Source of the DNA: a virus
Lineage: Duplodnaviria; Caudoviricetes
Virus record (IMG/VR): IMGVR_UViG_3300011008_000999
Length of the DNA: 64,000 nucleotides
Strand: one strand, 5' to 3'
Made by a program: the position numbers and the translations under genes. The notes under the pieces are model-generated. The model ran no database searches, was not told the origin of the DNA, and saw only the letters and a list, made by a program, of their open reading frames with translations. This document shows, piece after piece, positions 22,279 to 50,045 of this stretch. The stretch's first letter is position 1. Each line of letters begins with the position of its first letter.

Positions 22279-23438
22279 TAATGTAGCTCTTTGTAGTCCC
22301 AGTCTTTAACTAAACCTTTTGCCTGAAGTTCAGGATCCTGAATCATGGCATTGATCTCTTTAGAAAGATTTGCATCAGGATTATCAAGAAGCTCTACTAA
22401 TCTAGCAGTAATTTCATCTTCAAAAAGTAAGAATTGAGTATCTACAAGATATTTACCATTACTTTTAAGCATCTTCTGTGAAAGAATGATGTTAAGCTGA
22501 AGAATAAGGTCAAGTGATAAGTTCTTATCATTGTCAAGGTGATATAAAAGACGGTTAATAGTACCAGGAACATCAGAAGCATGGAATGTAGTACTAGTAA
22601 TATGACCAGTACGAGCAGCTTCAATAGCTGCACAAATAACCTCTTTATCTCTACACTCACCAACGATGATGATATTAGGGTGTTCACGAAGAGCAGCTTT
22701 AATACCCATTCCAAATGATAAGAAGTCTTTACCTAATTCTTTTTGGCTAATCTTTACGCTATCAGTACTATTGAAAATATTCTCAATAGGATCTTCAAGT
22801 GTAATGAATACCTTATTATCTAGAATCTCCCCTGGCTGAGTGAATGTGTTAATACAAGCTGCCATAGTAGTTGATTTACCAGAACCAGTAGGACCAGTCT
22901 CGTAACAAATACCAGATGACTTTTTGTAAGCTCTCCTAAGGGCTTCTACACATTTCTCATTATAATTGATTGTGTCAAATGTTGGCTGATCTGGTTTAAT
23001 CATACGGAAAGTAGCTACGTTTCTTTCTTCTGAGAATCCAAATGATACACGATAACGATAACAGTTATTTGGATATTTACCGTAGTTAGCACTAGTTTCA
23101 GGAACTCTAATAGATACAGAAGTATCAAGAAGTTTCTGTCTAACATAACCAGCATTTAACTCATTAAGAATGTACTTATCATAAAAGATTGACCATGTAT
23201 CTTTTGTAATAGGTACACAAGGTACTCTAACAATACGACCAAATCTTGAAATATAAGGACATTCAAATGTCTTGATATACAAGTCAGAACAGTTATGTTC
23301 TGTAGTGAAGATCAATAAATCCTCAATTGACAAATTTTGCTTATTAAGATCAAGAATATCGGCATTAGGATTTTCAGGAGTAGATTCCTTTATTTCTTCA
23401 TCTTTTGGTTTTATGTTTAATTTAAGTGTTTCTGCCAT
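22278..23438 (-). CDS. PilT/VirB11-family secretion ATPase
   Basis: GPTGSGKST, ITLEDPIE, ALREHPNIIIVGECRD, AARTGH...TTFHA. Confidence 0.88.
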   Translation of the reverse strand: MAETLKLNIKPKDEEIKESTPENPNADILDLNKQNLSIEDLLIFTTEHNCSDLYIKTFECPYISRFGRIVRVPCVPITKDTWSIFYDKYILNELNAGYVRQKLLDTSVSIRVPETSANYGKYPNNCYRYRVSFGFSEERNVATFRMIKPDQPTFDTINYNEKCVEALRRAYKKSSGICYETGPTGSGKSTTMAACINTFTQPGEILDNKVFITLEDPIENIFNSTDSVKISQKELGKDFLSFGMGIKAALREHPNIIIVGECRDKEVICAAIEAARTGHITSTTFHASDVPGTINRLLYHLDNDKNLSLDLILQLNIILSQKMLKSNGKYLVDTQFLLFEDEITARLVELLDNPDANLSKEINAMIQDPELQAKGLVKDWDYKELH

Positions 23439-23451
23439 TTATCTCACCTCA

Positions 23452-24780
23452 TTATAAGTCTTCACCAATTGCAGGAGACCAAATAGGCTGACCATTAGCA
23501 GTTGTTAAACCGTCAGTATCACCTACTGTAGCACCAGAATTCTGCTGGAAACTAAGAGGGAACATAAGAGGTCCAGTGTGAAGGAACTTTTTAGGTTTCT
23601 TATTGATATAATTATCAAGGAAATCAAGCGCCTGAGTAAGTGACTTAGATACAAGAATATTTCTATCTTTACATTCTGTAATAAGATTCATTACTCTCTG
23701 CTTTAACTGATCCTTAGTCTCAGCATATACAAGAACTGAGCAGTTAAACTGACAAAGTACAGTACCCTGTTCAAGATCCTGAATTGCCATAGTCGCAATA
23801 TCAATATTCTGCTGTGTCTCTTCAATAGATTCAATTTCCGCATTAGCCTCAATAGCCTGATCTCGTTCATATCTATCTGATGCTCTAGTTCTCTTTAACT
23901 TAAGCATAGCATCTTCTTTCTTGAGACACTGAATTGTTGTAACAACATTAGGATAATCCATAGGGAAGTTACAAGTTGAAATCTGAGGTGGGAAAGCTTG
24001 AATATCGAGCATACAACCATAAGTTGTCTGAGGATCAAGACCAAAAATATCCATTCCTTCATTATGCATTTCAAACCATCCAAAGTTATCAGATACAGTC
24101 TGAGTAATGGCTCCCATAATAGAAGTATAAGTCTTCTCGCTGATATAAGAAAGTCTATCATAAGAAATCTCATAACAAGGGAACACTTTACTTACAAAGT
24201 TATAGAATACTAGCTCTCTAGATGCACGTACGCATTTATAGTTAATAGTTCTATAAATATTTTCCTCAATCTTCATGATCTTTTCAGGATCAGCTTTAAG
24301 GTTACCAAGACCAGCAAAACTATTAGCCATATTCTTAGCAATAGCTTTAGCCGTGTCCATAAGAGTAAACTCTTCTACATCAGTAACAGTTGTCTGCTGA
24401 ATATCAATACCAAGCATACAATAAGACTGAAGATCATCTCTTACATTTCTAGTAAACTCAGCAGGCATATCATAATCTTCACGATAGATCTTAATTGTAT
24501 TGTAAAGATTCTCAAGTACGTCCTTACGTCTAATAGTCTTTTCAATACGTTCAATTGTGAACTGAACTGTAGGATTATTAGTAGTAAGGTTAGAGATCAT
24601 ATTAGTGATCTGCTGAACTGTATTATGTACTCCACCAGGTGAGTTTGTAGAATAATTTGATAATGGAATTATATAAAAAGCTGTAATAACACCATTATTA
24701 TAAAGAATGTTATCGCCAATAATGTCAATAGTATTTTGAGCTCTGACATTTATTTTAGCTGAAGTATCTTTCTTAGCCAT
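23452..24780 (-). CDS. VirB4/TcpF-like protein, N-terminal half only (no Walker motifs)
   Basis: Directly follows a TcpE-like gene; layout resembles the Gram-positive VirB4 N-terminal domain; ends where the ATPase domain would begin. Confidence 0.45.
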   Translation of the reverse strand: MAKKDTSAKINVRAQNTIDIIGDNILYNNGVITAFYIIPLSNYSTNSPGGVHNTVQQITNMISNLTTNNPTVQFTIERIEKTIRRKDVLENLYNTIKIYREDYDMPAEFTRNVRDDLQSYCMLGIDIQQTTVTDVEEFTLMDTAKAIAKNMANSFAGLGNLKADPEKIMKIEENIYRTINYKCVRASRELVFYNFVSKVFPCYEISYDRLSYISEKTYTSIMGAITQTVSDNFGWFEMHNEGMDIFGLDPQTTYGCMLDIQAFPPQISTCNFPMDYPNVVTTIQCLKKEDAMLKLKRTRASDRYERDQAIEANAEIESIEETQQNIDIATMAIQDLEQGTVLCQFNCSVLVYAETKDQLKQRVMNLITECKDRNILVSKSLTQALDFLDNYINKKPKKFLHTGPLMFPLSFQQNSGATVGDTDGLTTANGQPIWSPAIGEDL

Positions 24781-41358: not shown

Positions 41359-41708
41359 TCTCCGCAGCAGCCATAATCAACATTTTCATTCATAAGATCA
41401 AGACAATCTAATACAACTTGATGTGGATCGTCAACAATATCAGTTAGTGCTTTATATACATCGTCAACATGATATTTATTGAGTACCCAAGGTAATGTTT
41501 GTACATCACCAGTATCTGTATTATAGTAACCACCGGAAGACCAAAATCTAGGAAAATCACAACTATTCTTAGAACCAAATTTCCAAGTGTTACCATCTAT
41601 CATTACAGTAAGAGTACCATCACAGTACATCAAACCTTCTTCGTATTTTATGAATTGAATATTCATCTCTTTTCTGCCTTTGCAATCTGAGGAATTATCA
41701 TATTTCAT
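41349..41708 (-). CDS. Hypothetical phage-like protein
   Basis: FWSSGG and C-terminal GCCGEC motifs. Confidence 0.55.
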   Translation of the reverse strand: MKYDNSSDCKGRKEMNIQFIKYEEGLMYCDGTLTVMIDGNTWKFGSKNSCDFPRFWSSGGYYNTDTGDVQTLPWVLNKYHVDDVYKALTDIVDDPHQVVLDCLDLMNENVDYGCCGECL

Positions 41709-42408
41709 AATATTTCCAATGTAAATTATTAGTTTTATTACGTGTACCTAAACAACATTCACTTATTTTAGAACTATTGCTATTAGTTTCTTTTGCTGCT
41801 TGTGTTATAGAATCATATACTATTCCAGTATCTATACATATAACTTTATGTCGTTTCTTGACTGCAGCAGCTTCAATTCGTTTTTTATGAATAATTTTCA
41901 TTTCATCTGGATGTTCTTTTTGCCAATTTAAACAATCCTTAACTTTCTCCTTTGACCATTCTGGATTATTTTTCATTTTAATCTTCATAGCATTTGTAGC
42001 ATTCGGAGAAATTATTTTTATTCCACGTGTAAATTTATTATATTCTGGTTTTAAAGTCTTAATATAATGTTCTTCTATATTTTTAGCTTCACTAATAGTA
42101 CAGGTAGCTTTAGATAGTTCAATATGAGTAAAACAATTTTCTCCATATTTTTCAATGTCTCGAGAAAGTTCTAAATTAAATCCGTACCCTTTTCCATTTT
42201 TCCATCTAGCTTCAATAGATTTTTGAGTAGTAGCTCCAACATACCGTTTATTATTAACTGTACATGTGTGCGTATAAAATATAAAATCATATTTATTAGT
42301 ATCTTCATCAGATTTTAATATAGGTTTTTCATTATGTATATGCACTAAATGTCTATTTAATGAAGTTCTACAAGAAAAACATTTATTACAAATCAAACAT
42401 TTTTCCAC
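41698..42408 (-). CDS. Free-standing GIY-YIG homing endonuclease with C2H2 finger and NUMOD1-like tail
   Basis: CLICNKCF...LNRHLVHIH; FIFYTH...KRYVGAT...RW; KVICIDTGIVYDSITQAAK...ISECC. Confidence 0.8.
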   Translation of the reverse strand: MEKCLICNKCFSCRTSLNRHLVHIHNEKPILKSDEDTNKYDFIFYTHTCTVNNKRYVGATTQKSIEARWKNGKGYGFNLELSRDIEKYGENCFTHIELSKATCTISEAKNIEEHYIKTLKPEYNKFTRGIKIISPNATNAMKIKMKNNPEWSKEKVKDCLNWQKEHPDEMKIIHKKRIEAAAVKKRHKVICIDTGIVYDSITQAAKETNSNSSKISECCLGTRNKTNNLHWKYYEI

Positions 42409-43502
42409 TAGTTATTCCTTTCAGCTTTTATTACCTGTGGTATAATACAATTAGCTTTTATTACCCAAATCTTCTGACCAATAAATGGTTTCTCACCAAG
42501 GAGTTCTTTCATAATAGAAATATTATGCATTGATGCATTCTGAACAGTAGTACCATCAATAATTACTGGTTTGAAAGTAGCTACAGGTGTAATAGCACCA
42601 GTACGTCCAACTGACCAAGTAATTCCAGTAAGTTCAGTTTCAAACAGTTCATCATAGAACTTGAATGCAAAACCACCGCGGAATGAATGTTCATCATGAC
42701 CTTTTGCCATGTAAGAAGCATAATCATTGATCTTATATACAAGACCATCAATAGGATATTTCTTAGCGGCTGCTTTCTGTCTCATTCTTTCCTGTTGAGC
42801 TTCAAGATTCTCAGTATTAGTATATTCCCAATCAACTACTACAAACTTGAGATCTGCAAGTTTCTGAAGCTTAACATCAAGATCATCTTCACCTGTGATC
42901 ATATCCCATGCAACAAATGTAAGCATTCTTCTCTCGCATTCATCAGGATTATCAAGTCGAATAGATCCAGATGCAAAGTTTCTAGGATTCTTAAACATCG
43001 AGCTGAACTCTTCAAAGTCATCATACTTACAAATAACTTCACCATCTATAACGATTGTATCTTTAACGGAAATTGTCTTAGGAATCGAAGGAAGTCTCTT
43101 TGCATTTTCAGTGATGTCTTCACCAACTTTACCATTTCCACGAGTTTCAGCAGAAACAAGCTTTCCATTCTCATACTTAAGAGAACAGGTAAGGCCATCC
43201 ATCTTCAACATAGTAATTGACTTTTCCTTCAACCACTTCTTAAGAACGTTATTATCTTTGGTTTTATCAAGAGAGAGCATCAGATGGTTATGAGTAACCT
43301 TCTTAAGAGAGTTCTGAATATCAAACTGAATTGTTGCTGAAGGAGACTTAGGATCAATATAACCAGTCTCTTCCTCATAAGCACAACACTCAAAGTAAAG
43401 AGCGTCCCAAGCTTCATCACTAATCTCAGGATTTCCTTCATCATACCTCTTAGTGTAATAATTCAGCTTCTCAATATTCTGAGTATATTCTTCTCTCGTC
43501 AT
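42408..43502 (-). CDS. ligA: NAD-dependent DNA ligase, N-terminal subunit (adenylation and OB domains)
   Basis: ISDEAWD, MLSLDK, KMDG active site, TRGNG, NPRNFASG, DGLVYK, AFKF, GRTG, IIPQV; GGAGG RBS supports start at 43502. Confidence 0.93.
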   Translation of the reverse strand: MTREEYTQNIEKLNYYTKRYDEGNPEISDEAWDALYFECCAYEEETGYIDPKSPSATIQFDIQNSLKKVTHNHLMLSLDKTKDNNVLKKWLKEKSITMLKMDGLTCSLKYENGKLVSAETRGNGKVGEDITENAKRLPSIPKTISVKDTIVIDGEVICKYDDFEEFSSMFKNPRNFASGSIRLDNPDECERRMLTFVAWDMITGEDDLDVKLQKLADLKFVVVDWEYTNTENLEAQQERMRQKAAAKKYPIDGLVYKINDYASYMAKGHDEHSFRGGFAFKFYDELFETELTGITWSVGRTGAITPVATFKPVIIDGTTVQNASMHNISIMKELLGEKPFIGQKIWVIKANCIIPQVIKAERNN

Positions 43503-43541
43503 TGTAAAACCTCCGTACAAGTTATTATTTATTATAGTATT

Positions 43542-44696: not shown

Positions 44697-44762
44697 GACT
44701 TTCTATTCCTTTCTACAATATAAAAGTTAATTCGCATCATATTGTAAAATTTCCATACATTA

Positions 44763-44778
44763 TTATAATTAAATAGCT
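44763..44778 (-). promoter_or_regulatory. Class II motif
   Basis: AGCTATTTAATTATAA. Confidence 0.6.
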
Positions 44779-44779
44779 T

Positions 44780-45319
44780 TTAATTATTATATAACTCGGA
44801 TAATTTGCTCCAGTAATCATTAATTCTAACCATTAACTCATCCTGGATCTGAAGCCATTCATCTTTAGCTGTATTGAATTTGATCTCTCTACGATCATAT
44901 AAAAGTGCTTCAATTGAATCAGCTAAATTTACAATAAGTTTAGCGGTTTCATCATCTTCACATTTTTCCATAGTATCGTAGAAAGCAGGAACAGTCTGCA
45001 TAGCAAGCTTTTCTTGTTTCTTAACAATAGCTTTAAGTTCTGGATTCTTTTCCTTAACCATGTAGTTAACATCACCAAGTGATTCCTCAGTAGATTCTAC
45101 ATAGTCATGGCAACATCCATAACTAAGAGCCTTTAATGCTATATGATCAGGAATATGAAATAGATTTATAAGAATAACTATAATCTGAGTAACATATAAC
45201 TGATGTTCAGCATCATTTTCCTCAAACATAAAATCTCTTAACTGCCAACGCTTTACACGTGACTGTCTATAGAGTTTTAATGATTCAAGGTAAGTTACAA
45301 ATTCATTTATATTTTTCAT
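44780..45319 (-). CDS. HD-domain deoxynucleotide phosphohydrolase (YfbR-like)
   Basis: VKRW, ENDAEHQ, CHDYVE, GDV, ADSIEA. Confidence 0.8.
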   Translation of the reverse strand: MKNINEFVTYLESLKLYRQSRVKRWQLRDFMFEENDAEHQLYVTQIIVILINLFHIPDHIALKALSYGCCHDYVESTEESLGDVNYMVKEKNPELKAIVKKQEKLAMQTVPAFYDTMEKCEDDETAKLIVNLADSIEALLYDRREIKFNTAKDEWLQIQDELMVRINDYWSKLSELYNN

Positions 45320-45330
45320 TTATGTTTCCT

Positions 45331-45870
45331 TTACTCGATCATACCATTATATGCAACCTTAGTACCTTTTTCAATCCACTCAGGAAGCTTATCGAGACGA
45401 TCAAATGCTTTTTCTACAAGAGTATCACCATCATAGATATCAGTGATAGTAATATCTGCAGACTGTGAAAGCATAAGATTGAATGATGCTTTACCTAAAG
45501 TCTCTGCATAATAGACCATAATAGGTTTCTTACCAGATAAGCGTCTTGCATGATATGCATATCCAACTTCTACCATTGTACCAGCATCAATTGCCTGCAT
45601 AGGCTGACCTTCCTTATCAGGTTCAGTACAAGTACCACGCTTACCATCAGTAACTGCAAAAAGAATATCTGCATCATCTATATTTACAATATTACCTTCA
45701 AATGTAGCCTTCTGAACTGCAGGATCTGCAAATGAACCAGTAATATTAGAACTCTCTCTAGGTGAAAATACCTCGAATCCAAGTTCTCTAAGACGATTAA
45801 TAAGTCTCTTTTCTCTTTCTGCTTGTGCAGCAGTAAACCAAGGTGATGCAAAATAAATTTTCTTTGCCAT
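45331..45870 (-). CDS. Nucleoside 2-deoxyribosyltransferase / nucleotide N-glycosidase family
   Basis: IYFASPWF, FSPRE, DAGTMVEVGYA (catalytic Glu), FNLML. Confidence 0.85.
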   Translation of the reverse strand: MAKKIYFASPWFTAAQAEREKRLINRLRELGFEVFSPRESSNITGSFADPAVQKATFEGNIVNIDDADILFAVTDGKRGTCTEPDKEGQPMQAIDAGTMVEVGYAYHARRLSGKKPIMVYYAETLGKASFNLMLSQSADITITDIYDGDTLVEKAFDRLDKLPEWIEKGTKVAYNGMIE

Positions 45871-45909
45871 TGTCTAATTTCCTTTCATTTTTTTTTCGTG
45901 CTTTGGTTT

Positions 45910-46797
45910 TTAGATACCTTCAATAACACCGTTCTTAATCATATACTCATATACTTCAGGTTTTCTACCTCTAGTAGCATTATGTAAATATGCATACTTC
46001 TTAAGAGTATTATGATAATTAGGCGCAAATTTCTCAGGAGCAGAAAGAATTAAGTGTACGTATTTTCTCAACTCCTTATTAGATCTGTTTATAAAATAGA
46101 AAGTCTCAAACTTCTCATCAAGTCCCCAAGAAGTATGAACACGTCTATTTGTCCAGAACTCATATAAAACTTCGCTCTCATAAAAAGCTTTCATCATCTT
46201 TTCATAATCTGCAATGTCTTCTTCTGCAGCAACAATTAACTTATTACCTGCAGATTCATAGTTCTTAAGATACTTATTAGTCCAAAAGCTCTCAGTAAGC
46301 TTATAACCAAATATCTTACAAAATTCACGATAATATCTCTTAGCATTATCAGAAAGATCAGATACATGTGAAGGACCTGCAGATAATCTAATATGCATAA
46401 ACATATTATGATCTGATTCAAATACCTTACTGAATCCATCTCTAAAGATAACATCTTCATCAGATACAAACATCTTATCTAACTTAAGATACTTAATACC
46501 ATACCAGTGCGCTAAGTTCTTAGTAGACATACAATACTCTTCAACAAAAGAATTATCAATAACGTCCTTCTTGAACTTATCAACAATCTTGCGACTAGTA
46601 AGAATAGATGCTTTCTTAACTCTTTCAGAAATATTATACTTATCGTAAATCTTCTGTATTTCGTCAGTCTTATCGCCAATTCTAGTCTCATTAATGGCGA
46701 TAAACTGAATATCTTTCAAATCTGTTTTAGGCAGGTTCTTAACTAACAACTCGAAAAAATACATATTGTTAGCTAAAACCATTATTGCATTCTTCAT
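45910..46797 (-). CDS. GT-A fold glycosyltransferase-like protein
   Basis: MFVSDEDVIF DxD motif, SAG, GLDE, late YLHN. Confidence 0.5.
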   Translation of the reverse strand: MKNAIMVLANNMYFFELLVKNLPKTDLKDIQFIAINETRIGDKTDEIQKIYDKYNISERVKKASILTSRKIVDKFKKDVIDNSFVEEYCMSTKNLAHWYGIKYLKLDKMFVSDEDVIFRDGFSKVFESDHNMFMHIRLSAGPSHVSDLSDNAKRYYREFCKIFGYKLTESFWTNKYLKNYESAGNKLIVAAEEDIADYEKMMKAFYESEVLYEFWTNRRVHTSWGLDEKFETFYFINRSNKELRKYVHLILSAPEKFAPNYHNTLKKYAYLHNATRGRKPEVYEYMIKNGVIEGI

Positions 46798-46824
46798 CTA
46801 AGTTTCTCCTATTTTATTCATATA

Positions 46825-46852
46825 GGAGACATCTAAATGAATAGATGTCTCC
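46825..46852 (-). terminator. Hairpin between the ThyX-like and GT-like genes
   Basis: GGAGACATCTA/TAGATGTCTCC perfect inverted repeat; weak U-tract. Confidence 0.45.
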
Positions 46853-46862
46853 TTATAATTGC

Positions 46863-47831
46863 TTATCTATTGTAATAAGGCATGTTCTTAATTCTCTGTC
46901 TTGCAACAAGAGGATCATTAGGATCGTAATCAGCAGGAAGTTCCTTTCCTTCAGCTTCAAGCTTAAGCCAATTCTCAATCATTTCCTTCTCACCAGGAAG
47001 AAGAAGTTCAGGTCTCTCATGATACATCTTCTCAAGCTCGATCTTCCAAGAAGAAGTTCTCCAATCATTGTGTGCCTTTTCTCCGAAGTCGTATCCTTCA
47101 GGAGTAGGATAACGTGAGAAGTCATTGTTGTATGTATGGTCTCTCTTATAGAACTGCTTTCTATCAGAGAACTGAAGCAACCAAGTCCAAAGTTTCTTAG
47201 AAAGAGGATCAGTAAGCTCATCAATTGCTTTAACAAGCTCGTATCTCATAAGTCTGTAAATGTAGTTAATCTCATCCGCGAAGTTATTCTCAGTTCTTGC
47301 ATTACATGAGTTCATCCACTGCATTACATCAGCGGTATAGCAAAGAGAGATTGTCTGTGCATGGAAACCAAAGTATCTAGCATCCATATAAGATACTCCA
47401 CCTTCGCACATATCAATGTAAAGATCTTCAATATCTCTCTCAATCTTCTCAAGACGATCCATCCAATCCTTATTCTTATAAATGAATGCAGGAGTAATGA
47501 AGTCCTGAGTAAGAGGTCTTGTATCACCAGACTGTGAACAGAAGAATCCCTTCTCTCTAGTAAGCTGCGCAAGACATACGCGAGAAATGTTGTTTACCTG
47601 GAATGAAAGCTTAGAACCTTCAAATGCAAACTTTGCAAATGTCTTTCCGTTGATGATCTCATCAACTACTTTCTGGAAATGTGGATGATCAGGACTATAC
47701 TCGATATCCTCTGCACCTTCGTAAAACTCACCAAGCTTACCAAAAGAAGTAACCGCTTTAGCAAGATCGTTACCTTTCCAGTCAATGAGCTTTACATTGA
47801 TGTTCTCATAACCATTTCTAAATGTTCCCAT
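46863..47831 (-). CDS. Divergent ThyX-like flavin-dependent enzyme
   Basis: FEGSKLSFQVNNISRVCLAQLTR...DTR, DARY, CNARTEN...EI; the canonical RHRx7SxR motif is altered. Confidence 0.7.
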   Translation of the reverse strand: MGTFRNGYENINVKLIDWKGNDLAKAVTSFGKLGEFYEGAEDIEYSPDHPHFQKVVDEIINGKTFAKFAFEGSKLSFQVNNISRVCLAQLTREKGFFCSQSGDTRPLTQDFITPAFIYKNKDWMDRLEKIERDIEDLYIDMCEGGVSYMDARYFGFHAQTISLCYTADVMQWMNSCNARTENNFADEINYIYRLMRYELVKAIDELTDPLSKKLWTWLLQFSDRKQFYKRDHTYNNDFSRYPTPEGYDFGEKAHNDWRTSSWKIELEKMYHERPELLLPGEKEMIENWLKLEAEGKELPADYDPNDPLVARQRIKNMPYYNR

Positions 47832-47883
47832 AATTTTGTAATTTCCTTTCTAAAATTAGTCTTTTAGTTACATTTTGCATTTT

Positions 47884-47899
47884 ATAATAATAAATAGCC
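47884..47899 (-). promoter_or_regulatory. Class II motif upstream of the ThyX-like gene
   Basis: GGCTATTTATTATTAT. Confidence 0.55.
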
Positions 47900-47911
47900 C
47901 TTAAACTATTA

Positions 47912-48940
47912 TTATTTCTTACTGATCTTTACGAACTTTACTTTATCAAACTCATTGATCTTAGAGATCTTACCTGAGTCATTGTACAAGTAAATAACGT
48001 AATAGTTACCATCGTCTCCAATAAGGAAGTCATAGTAATACACCGGAGTTCCATCATAAACCTGACGATACTTATATCTGATATAAGTCATATAATCACC
48101 TAACATCTCGAAATTAGGTAATTCATCATCAAGTTCTTCTGACTTATAGTCATCTGATACATTAATACCAACAGAATTATGATATGTAGGAAAACCTAAA
48201 CATGTTTTATCAAAAATTCTATTTGCATCATAAACCATAGGTTCTACTGCTTTATTATTAACAGTAATAGGTGAGAAGTCAGAATCTGCAGGTACTACAA
48301 AGTTCTTAACAATATCTGTCATCTCATCTACATGACGCTCACATTCAGGTTTAAGAATAACAATATCAGCATAGTGTGCTGCAAAGCTAATCATATAAGG
48401 CATAGAAAAATCTGCAAGATTTCTAACAGCTTTATACTTACCACCAAACACACCGTATGAAATAATCTTAATACCTTTTTCCTTACAATACTTTACAGTA
48501 TCAAGATCTACATAATAAGGATTGATTTCAATCTCATTGTATGCAGGATAGAAACCAGTAATAGACTTATATTCTTCAATATCAGCTGCAGTAAAGTTAC
48601 TAACACCTTTCTCAATAAATCTATCATCAGTTGCCATCAACTTAGCAACCTTCTGCCAATTACCACGGTTACTATGAATAAGCATAATATCGATCTTATC
48701 TGTATTCAAACACTTAAGATGATTTGATACGAAAAATTCATAGTTATCTCCATGATATGATGAGATCTTACTAATCAACTTATATCTCTTTCTTATGTCT
48801 TTAAGAAGATAGTCGTTGTTATAGTCAATTGCTGTATCTACAAACTTACAAATCTCAATCATCTTATTCATAATCATAGATTGTTCAGATTTAGTCTGTA
48901 AATGCAATTCCCAAGTACCAACTGCAATTTCATTACTCAT
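47912..48940 (-). CDS. Aldo-keto reductase-like protein with C-terminal extension
   Basis: GTW, DTAIDY, SK, DIMLIH, GVSNF, NEIEINPY, GIKIISYG. Confidence 0.8.
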   Translation of the reverse strand: MSNEIAVGTWELHLQTKSEQSMIMNKMIEICKFVDTAIDYNNDYLLKDIRKRYKLISKISSYHGDNYEFFVSNHLKCLNTDKIDIMLIHSNRGNWQKVAKLMATDDRFIEKGVSNFTAADIEEYKSITGFYPAYNEIEINPYYVDLDTVKYCKEKGIKIISYGVFGGKYKAVRNLADFSMPYMISFAAHYADIVILKPECERHVDEMTDIVKNFVVPADSDFSPITVNNKAVEPMVYDANRIFDKTCLGFPTYHNSVGINVSDDYKSEELDDELPNFEMLGDYMTYIRYKYRQVYDGTPVYYYDFLIGDDGNYYVIYLYNDSGKISKINEFDKVKFVKISKK

Positions 48941-49459
48941 TTATTTACTTTCCTCCGGTTTGAACTCATAGAAGACATCTTCATTTTTAAGATCATCTTC
49001 ATTATAAAAGCCTAAAGGTTTAATTACAACAGGTTCTGTCATAAGATAATCTTCAGCTTTAGTAGTTTTAAGATACTCATTTACTTCCGTTGCGATCTGC
49101 ATAGGAGTCTTTTCAGACGTGTTGAATTTAAGAACTGTAATACCAAGTTTCTCAAATTCTTCAATATATCTATAGTAAGCTTCTCGATCTTTATTGATGT
49201 TAATCTTAGGTTCATGACTAATTGCACAACGAATCTGATGATCGTCATTAGATACATCAAGAAAAACAACAAGAGGTTTATAAAGCATTACGTAATCATG
49301 ATTTCTATGGAACTTATCATTATATACTACCTGTGTCAATGCACCACGACAGTTAACTGCGTATGCATAATTAGTGATAGTAGTAATGTAAGGCCCAATA
49401 GTATCTTTACCTGCTTTATCTACCCCTTCAATTTCAATCGCAATATTATTGATTGTCAT
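48941..49459 (-). CDS. dNMP/thymidylate kinase-like protein 2
   Basis: IEGVDKAGKDT P-loop; CRG in place of DR. Confidence 0.65.
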   Translation of the reverse strand: MTINNIAIEIEGVDKAGKDTIGPYITTITNYAYAVNCRGALTQVVYNDKFHRNHDYVMLYKPLVVFLDVSNDDHQIRCAISHEPKININKDREAYYRYIEEFEKLGITVLKFNTSEKTPMQIATEVNEYLKTTKAEDYLMTEPVVIKPLGFYNEDDLKNEDVFYEFKPEESK

Positions 49460-49476
49460 TTATTAAATATCCTTTC

Positions 49477-49977
49477 TTAAATATTTACACCTTTACTTCT
49501 AAGCCATTCATCAAGCTTTTCATAAGCATTAGGTTCAGCTATATCAATTACATAATATCTGTCATAGTTGAACTGTTTGAAATATTCTGCATATAACTTA
49601 AATAGCTCATTCTGATAATTAATTTCTTTTAGATAGTCATATTCACCTCTAGCAATAAGACGTTCATTAAGAATATCCATATTTGAAGTCAAAAAGATAA
49701 CAAAGAACGTATCTGTAGCGATAAGTTCTTCAGTTATCTTCTTAAACTCTTGATAAGTCAACTTAAAAGGTCGACCATAAATCTGTGGAAAAATATACTC
49801 GCTTAAGTGAAAGCGGTCAAAGATTTGATTATCTTTATTTAATAAATCAAGATAATACGGAAGATCGTTAGGTGTTTTAGCTGTTCCATGAATAGTATCA
49901 AGTTCATAATTAGCTAAGATCTTTTCTGCTAATGTAGTTTTACCTGTTGCATCAGGTCCTTCAATAATAATATTCAT
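49477..49977 (-). CDS. dNMP/thymidylate kinase-like protein 1
   Basis: IEGPDATGKTT, FDRFHLSE, ERLIARG. Confidence 0.8.
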   Translation of the reverse strand: MNIIIEGPDATGKTTLAEKILANYELDTIHGTAKTPNDLPYYLDLLNKDNQIFDRFHLSEYIFPQIYGRPFKLTYQEFKKITEELIATDTFFVIFLTSNMDILNERLIARGEYDYLKEINYQNELFKLYAEYFKQFNYDRYYVIDIAEPNAYEKLDEWLRSKGVNI

Positions 49978-50010: not shown

Positions 50011-50043
50011 ATTTTATCACGATCTTCCGTAAATGTAAATAGT
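50011..50043 (-). promoter_or_regulatory. Class I promoter heading the nucleotide cluster
   Basis: ACTA-TTTACA-N17-TAAAAT with TG. Confidence 0.75.
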
Positions 50044-50045
50044 TT

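Follow-up and report, generated by a model that had tools for sequence, protein, structure and literature searches.

A conserved cassette around a divergent ThyX points to a probable, undescribed variant of phage pyrimidine hypermodification

Introduction

Why would an element that encodes a canonical thymidylate synthase carry a second, divergent one among kinases, a nucleotidase and a deoxyribosyltransferase? The question is raised by seven contiguous minus-strand open reading frames (ORFs) at positions 44780-49977 of a 64,000-nucleotide stretch of IMG/VR record IMGVR_UViG_3300011008_000999 (hereafter the window), which belongs to a giant, 332-kb mobile element from the rumen that we call G000. 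These ORFs encode two kinases, an aldo-keto reductase (AKR), a divergent ThyX (ThyX*), a glycosyltransferase (GT), a nucleoside-type 2'-deoxyribosyltransferase (NDT) and a YfbR/DatZ-like HD 5'-deoxynucleotidase (HD). A first-pass annotation, made from the window's sequence, had suggested that the seven genes together may form an undescribed base-modification pathway and serve something beyond plain supply of deoxythymidine monophosphate (dTMP). We find that the cassette is real, conserved and undescribed, and we read it as a variant of the pyrimidine hypermodification seen in phages, one that opens an old question to testing. The cluster very probably makes some modified pyrimidine, and the candidates for that product are weighed below.

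Results

A four-gene core is conserved around ThyX*

Searches returned 697 ThyX* homologues, with no close relative found in cultured phages or plasmids and a single match in GTDB genomes, on the contig of a metagenome-assembled genome. Gene neighbourhoods were compared across 11 control ThyX loci and the 32 ThyX* loci that had adequate flanks and remained after dereplication at 90%, using hidden Markov models (HMMs) that were built from these same loci and with which Pfam independently agrees. This comparison revealed HD within 5 kb of ThyX* in 32/32 loci, NDT in 31/32 and a kinase in 30/32, whereas beside the control ThyX genes NDT was seen in 0/11 loci and HD in 2/11. The conserved unit is ThyX* with the HD nucleotidase, NDT and one kinase. 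The other genes come and go: AKR was present in 5/32 loci and the window's GT in 4/32. Sisters L116 and L117 have kinase 1, and L006, a relative with 83% identity, lacks it.

The proposed base-modification pathway stands in its pyrimidine-modification anatomy but not as a seven-gene unit. The seven contiguous, co-oriented genes were confirmed in position and order, their families by profile search (Pfam, PHROG and NCBIfam searches back kinase 1, AKR, Thy1, NDT and the YfbR-type HD) and GT by structure. Conserved gene order among homologues, on the other hand, was not borne out, as order is shuffled between loci with the four-gene linkage nonetheless kept. Carriers comprise sister elements, 40-60 kb phage contigs in which the cassette abuts a DNA polymerase gene, and large phages that are TAG-recoded and have a portal of the T4 type. 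In L007-L010, large gut phages, TAG is decoded as Gln, and L009 and L010 hold an extra kinase with a degenerate P-loop.

ThyX* keeps a ThyX fold and loses donor-site residues

The ThyX* model (mean predicted local distance difference test, pLDDT, 83) resembled ThyX structures (VIA Z 11-12, root-mean-square deviation (rmsd) ~3.5 over ~200 residues), with identities of 15-18% to ThyX of T. maritima (TM0449) and M. tuberculosis and to Streptomyces PolB. An earlier suggested likeness to PolB dissolved on comparison: PolB heads the structure ranking (Z 12.3), but ordinary ThyX structures score level with it (12.2-11.3). Like canonical ThyX, ThyX* has the PF02511 fold and retains equivalents of Arg74, Gln75, Arg78, Ser88 (44/45), Arg147 and Arg174 (45/45), the invariance of residues 82-89 being due in part to the search pattern; unlike canonical ThyX, it comes with obligate NDT and HD partners and a conserved C-terminal extension of ~100 amino acids (aa).

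Equivalents of His53, His79, Arg90 and Tyr91 are absent from ThyX*, and its AQxEIR motif is altered. The His53 position, which we take to be the folate-stacking residue of the GHxS motif, is T, L or A across the family (T64 here) versus H in 25/26 control ThyX sequences, most of which form one viral clade. Arg90 and Tyr91 are missing throughout the family, and of the canonical RHRx7-8S..SxRY motif the RHR part is gone in the subclade to which the window's ThyX* belongs, with REK and SGDT in the window protein. In ThyX, Arg174 activates deoxyuridine monophosphate (dUMP), the R90A and Y91A changes cause large rate losses with slowed transfer, and free formaldehyde is accepted without folate via an N5 carbinolamine (PMC8316439). 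Because the His53, Arg90 and Tyr91 equivalents are lost while the six residues listed above are kept, we infer that ThyX* probably retains nucleotide and flavin binding around a remodelled one-carbon donor site. An activity other than plain dTMP supply, as first argued from the window, is supported by these residue losses at the sequence level and by a second, fully canonical ThyX encoded separately from ThyX* at G000 23196-24209; G002 likewise has a canonical ThyX. In G001, the genome of L014, a weakly scoring divergent Thy1 (84563-85006, E 7e-6) is encoded in addition to ThyX*.

NDT is of the nucleoside type and has a nucleotidase partner

Residues Y6, F12, P37, D95, E101 and N131 of NDT were invariant (P37, D95 and N131 each in 43/43 sequences), which gives the protein the Tyr/Asp/Glu triad, the Asp and Asn for the 5'-OH and the water-excluding Pro that characterize NDT/PTD enzymes. 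Profile ranking placed it with nucleoside transferases (E 8e-19 and 5e-15), far ahead of MilB (1e-3), DNPH1 (0.1-1.6) and BlsM (0.7), and this ranking together with D95/N131 overturned the MilB/BlsM likeness initially proposed. As the Asp/Asn pair is linked to 5'-OH binding (PMC12884076), and hence to a nucleoside substrate, NDT should, judging by these residues, act on nucleosides supplied by HD, so that a nucleotidase would be needed alongside it. HD and dUTPase are fused in one subclade of ThyX* loci, which favours a uracil substrate. NDT genes are rare in cultured phages (14/50,697 records by tblastn).

Unrelated decorating enzymes share one slot

The AlphaFold model of the 295-aa GT (pLDDT 71, 6 sequences) matched GT-A/GT8-type transferases, with WbbM as the best structure match (VIA Z 10.3, rmsd 4.0 over 216 residues) and 8/8 chains with Z>=8 being glycosyltransferases; an invariant DxD (113-115) and His272 are present. 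On this model the protein is a GT-A fold, as had been guessed and set beforehand as a test; among characterised enzymes it has no close relative. The AKR tetrad D35/Y40/K58/H89 was invariant (7/7), with the PF00248 match covering the N-terminal half only and the C-terminal half divergent. No AKR relatives were found by a single-protein scan of viral contigs, yet some ThyX* loci hold an AKR.

Across loci, the GT position is occupied by the window's GT-A, a GT32-type GT, LicD (in some loci accompanied by choline kinase, LicC and a BCCT transporter) or an S-adenosylmethionine methyltransferase. A sister element whose ThyX* is 96% identical has LicD in the GT position and no AKR in that interval, and the same GT (47%) recurs in distant phages L053 and L054, in the slot where their sisters have a methyltransferase. 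Because hydroxyl-acting decorators interchange in one slot, the ThyX* product may well carry a free hydroxyl. In L138, L032, L040, L048, L055 and L116, lic (phosphocholine) genes were observed within the nucleotide cassette beside a DNA polymerase gene, which suggests a phosphocholine-type decoration of DNA in these carriers.

The closest precedents are thymidine-hypermodified phages

The closest precedent, which the first-pass annotation had not named, lies in the T-hypermodified phages SP-15, YerA41 and Carin-5. Their DNA carries 5-(poly)hydroxypentyl-uracil (PMC5977210, PMC9023294, PMC12686479), with a dihydroxypentyl linker in SP-15 and Carin-5 and a linker 16 Da heavier in YerA41 (PMC13697223, PMC9023294). 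According to papers of 2025-26, the route by which the linker of modified thymidine of the SP-15 type is made has yet to be deciphered (PMC12686479), and the title of a 1978 paper cited in PMC5977210 says that ribose label appears in dihydroxypentyluracil (DHPU). Like the cassette, these phages encode a divergent ThyX (beside a normal synthase in SP-15, where it is a second, orphan Thy1; PMC5977210), a nucleoside-type NDT, a YfbR HD and hydroxyl-decorating transferases, with a reductase nearby in SP-15 and Carin-5. Unlike the cassette, they have a gp130/gp081/gp049 family of ~400 aa in place of a single ThyX domain plus extension (322 aa), a sugar-biosynthesis block in place of one GT, and a short-chain dehydrogenase/reductase (SDR) in place of AKR, and G000 may not be a tailed phage.

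In SP-15 the gp130 neighbourhood contains NDT and a reductase, and the genome also encodes a YfbR HD. Carin-5, YerA41, GXN1, phiXF1 and Vibrio phages have gp130 homologues. An NDT carrying the motifs of the cassette NDT was present in 6/6 cultured phages with a gp130-type ThyX (SP-15, YerA41, Carin-5, Va2, phiXF1 and GXN1) and adjoins that gene in Va2, phiXF1 and GXN1; YfbR HD was present in SP-15, YerA41, Carin-5, phiXF1 and GXN1, and the HD search in Va2 gave no match. Co-encoded NDT and YfbR HD as a trait of such systems is derived in this analysis and is not published as defining. GXN1 has the order NDT-HD-ThyX, like most ThyX* loci; against the profiles of the ThyX* family, NDT of this phage reaches 124 bits and HD 158 bits.

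Some NDT genes in these phages are mis- or un-annotated: YerA41_086 (L095:12380-12916), annotated as a mannosyltransferase, is an NDT (PF05014 E 5e-15), and the gp130-type gene of Va2 and phiXF1 is followed directly by an NDT that is annotated as hypothetical (QPB08580 and phiXF1_89, respectively). Listeria phage LIS04 (L101:6974-9626) has a tandem NDT followed by a third divergent ThyX type (371 aa) with a weak gp130-profile match. A shared reductase was considered as the source of the one-oxygen linker difference between SP-15/Carin-5 and YerA41, and this idea was unsupported, as gp129 matches the SDRs of YerA41 and Va2 and not that of Carin-5.

Geobacillus phage GR1 (OK896991; L094:8962-14773) is the closest cultured relative, with NDT, HD, an annotated glycosyltransferase, a kinase and a nitroreductase. 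Its ThyX is like ThyX* in its 322 aa, absent His53 and ThyX*-family HMM match (E 4e-21), and unlike it in keeping RHR and in branching as a long-branch sister to ThyX*, with weak support in a quick tree; the chemistry of GR1 DNA was not found in the literature searched. The Z-genome enzymes DatZ (HD) and DmtZ (NDT family) similarly pair an HD hydrolase with an NDT-fold enzyme serving base replacement in phage DNA. The cassette differs from that system in having no PurZ and in its partner ThyX*, and DmtZ differs from the cassette NDT in acting on deoxyadenosine monophosphate and in having no Asp/Asn pair (PMC12884076).

Discussion

What we observed are the genes with their folds and altered residues, their linkage and the swapping of enzymes in one slot; from these we infer every reaction of a route to which, by analogy with SP-15 and YerA41, we give about an even chance: HD and NDT would supply deoxyribose, ThyX* would couple it and GT would decorate it, giving a C5-substituted deoxyuridine for the element's own DNA without folate. 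HD would dephosphorylate a canonical deoxynucleoside monophosphate (dNMP), probably dTMP, to the nucleoside, and NDT would cut the glycosidic bond and free or pass on 2-deoxyribose. In the boldest step, ThyX* would take the sugar aldehyde at N5 of reduced flavin adenine dinucleotide, as ThyX does formaldehyde, and coupling to C5 of dUMP with subsequent reduction would yield 5-(3,4,5-trihydroxypentyl)-dUMP or a related compound that is ring-closed or has lost more oxygen. Kinase 2 would phosphorylate this product, the element's PolA would insert it in place of some thymidine, and GT-A would put a sugar on a side-chain hydroxyl, a role that LicD (by phosphocholine-type transfer) or a methyltransferase would take in sisters. 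The optional AKR might tailor the chain or remove excess aldehyde, and the modification would serve nuclease evasion. A wider claim, which we hold tentatively and at clearly less than even chances, is that ThyX* is a folate-independent, flavin-based C-alkylating enzyme joining a deoxynucleoside sugar to uracil C5, that this route is shared by two lineages of ThyX, namely ThyX* and gp130, and that the cassette is a plug-and-play platform for decorating DNA with glycosyl, phosphocholine or methyl groups, at work here on a 332-kb element that is conjugative and seems to form no virions.

Several points weigh against deoxyribose coupling. Orthology of ThyX* with gp130 was rejected, with no HMM cross-hit either way and separate clades in a quick tree; because the two form different clades, the cassette would act like an SP-15-type system without being a member by orthology, and its tie to the characterised phages appears to run through NDT and HD. 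The calculated mass of deoxyuridine plus deoxyribose minus H2O plus H2 is 346.138, or +104.047 over thymidine, which matches the 242+104 fragment of YerA41 (PMC9023294) and is 16 Da above the SP-15 linker (PMC13697223), but the fit holds for the authors' reading, in which the published YerA41 m/z of 346 is taken for a neutral sum. Carrier genomes could be assembled from ordinary short-read metagenomes, unlike YerA41 and Carin-5, which resisted sequencing, and because carriers sequence so easily any modification would be smaller, partial or late. Moreover, 6-bp palindromes are still under-used in the element (median ratio 0.86, with no control set), and a persistent-plasmid element would have to keep modified deoxynucleoside triphosphates (dNTPs) out of host DNA. 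The transferase-type, water-excluding P37 of NDT fits base swapping better than hydrolysis, the loss of Arg90 from ThyX* could mean a cytosine substrate, and in one carrier, complete at 55 kb, ThyX* is the sole thymidylate synthase-type enzyme.

Some of these points fit a smaller product, in which ThyX* would make a small-handle pyrimidine (a hydroxymethyl, hydroxy or cytosine derivative), HD and NDT would either destroy the competing canonical nucleotide or, in a DmtZ-like manner, transfer deoxyribose to the modified base, and GT would decorate the hydroxyl. This scheme accounts equally well for linkage and decorator swapping, and P37, the Arg90 loss, the ease with which small modifications would sequence and the best PHROG match of HD, a DatZ-type dATP triphosphohydrolase, all favour it. 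We nevertheless consider it rather unlikely: the lost His53, presumably folate-stacking, argues against a one-carbon donor, NDT beside or near an odd ThyX in every pentyl-linker phage is left unexplained, and the known hydroxymethyluracil, hydroxymethylcytosine and hydroxycytosine pathways rely on enzymes of the ThyA type and are not known to pair a ThyX with an obligate NDT (PMC13326640 and general background).

Ordinary nucleotide economy, with ThyX* as a divergent dTMP synthase, HD, NDT and the kinases balancing or salvaging dNTP pools, and GT and AKR as passengers, seems improbable given the canonical ThyX of G000 and G002, the lost catalytic residues of ThyX*, a nucleotidase that works against salvage and four unrelated decorator types in one slot. 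It does have a parallel in phage VPE25, whose NDT serves salvage beside deoxyguanosine kinase and a PnuC transporter, and it would suit both the carrier with no other synthase and the RHR kept by GR1. We hold equally little belief in a small molecule (a nucleoside analogue) or a poisoned dNTP pool directed at incoming phages or competitors and not built into the element's DNA. In most carriers, which are phage contigs, the cassette abuts a DNA polymerase gene, NDT is not of the MilB/BlsM type and the cluster has no exporter, even if the VirB11-type and coupling-type ATPases make the element look plasmid-like and ThyX paralogues (PolB) do serve nucleoside-antibiotic pathways.

No description of the gene combination, the cassette or a deoxyribose-coupling route was found in the literature searched, which covers few subscription papers; the first-pass annotation, too, knew of no such description. 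If deoxyribose coupling is correct, it would solve the biosynthesis of DHPU, open since the 1970s, and add a new reaction to those of ThyX, and gut and rumen would harbour a large class of phages and elements whose DNA is modified, possibly with phosphocholine. The cassette yields a four-enzyme, mass-specific hypothesis testable in E. coli, GR1 offers a cultured, ready test case for modified DNA, and an enzymatic polyol handle on uracil would be a useful tool.

Cluster layout and genomic setting

Table 1. Features of the cluster in order of transcription, with positions in the window.
Feature	Position	Strand	Remarks
Class I promoter-like motif, cluster head	50011..50044	-	CTATTTACA, 17-nt spacer, extended -10
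Kinase 1, thymidylate-kinase family, accessory	49477..49977	-	PF02223 E 2.7e-8
Kinase 2, dNMP-kinase-like, core	48941..49459	-	Weak profile match (E 0.06); P-loop-like motif conserved in family
AKR, accessory	47912..48940	-	PF00248 E 5e-12; catalytic tetrad intact
Class II promoter-like motif ahead of ThyX*-GT-NDT-HD	47880..47903	-	Copy at 47897
ThyX*, core	46863..47831	-	Thy1 PF02511 E 6e-11; 322 aa
GT-A (GT8-like) glycosyltransferase, swappable decorator slot	45910..46797	-	295 aa; fold match, no Pfam match
Nucleoside-type NDT, core	45331..45870	-	PF05014 E 1.4e-17
YfbR/DatZ-like HD 5'-deoxynucleotidase, core	44780..45319	-	PF12917 E 5.9e-11; H39, H71, D72, D134
Second class II motif (at 44776), heads next gene, marks cluster end	44759..44782	-	

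The class I promoter and internal class II motif recognised in the first-pass annotation are both real, strand-biased and mostly intergenic genome-wide: the class I motif (~50042 in the window) has 55 forward-strand copies, 54 of them intergenic, and 2 on the opposite strand, and the class II motif has 23 forward copies (19 intergenic) and 1 reverse. Metatranscriptome contigs from three rumen studies span parts of ThyX*, GT, NDT and HD, although such contigs cannot prove transcription or rank genes.

The G000 record is complete, with terminal repeats, and classed as a virus; nearly every gene lies on a single strand, and near-identical DNA was found in gut metagenomes of cattle and sheep. It encodes dUTPase, dCMP deaminase, thymidine kinase and a PolA of ~870 aa split over two consecutive ORFs (500 + 369 aa; L109, G000 133266-135882), in which a uracil-DNA glycosylase part, such as is fused to the large PolA of the SP-15 group, is not evident by reading the sequence; neither ThyA nor DnaE was found in G000. 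Conjugation-type ATPases (VirB11-type and coupling-type) are encoded, and G000 had no match to PF03237 or PF04860, the two Pfam models tried for terminase and portal. G000 may thus combine a phage-like replisome with the nature of a giant conjugative element. A two-subunit RNA polymerase (L115:5598-9063, G000 200597-204062), for which plasmid and phage collections gave no close relative, together with the two genome-wide promoter classes suggests a staged transcription programme.

G000 also holds ~40 tRNA-like genes, mostly in one cluster (144222-171079) and two with odd anticodon arms, and a further NDT-fold gene (L114:2221-2673, G000 160220-160672) that has no Asp/Asn pair and more closely resembles a nucleotide hydrolase. 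At 41698-43520 of the window, a truncated NAD-dependent ligase ORF (370 aa) is followed directly by a GIY-YIG-like endonuclease ORF, and the BRCT part sits further downstream, as it does in L006.

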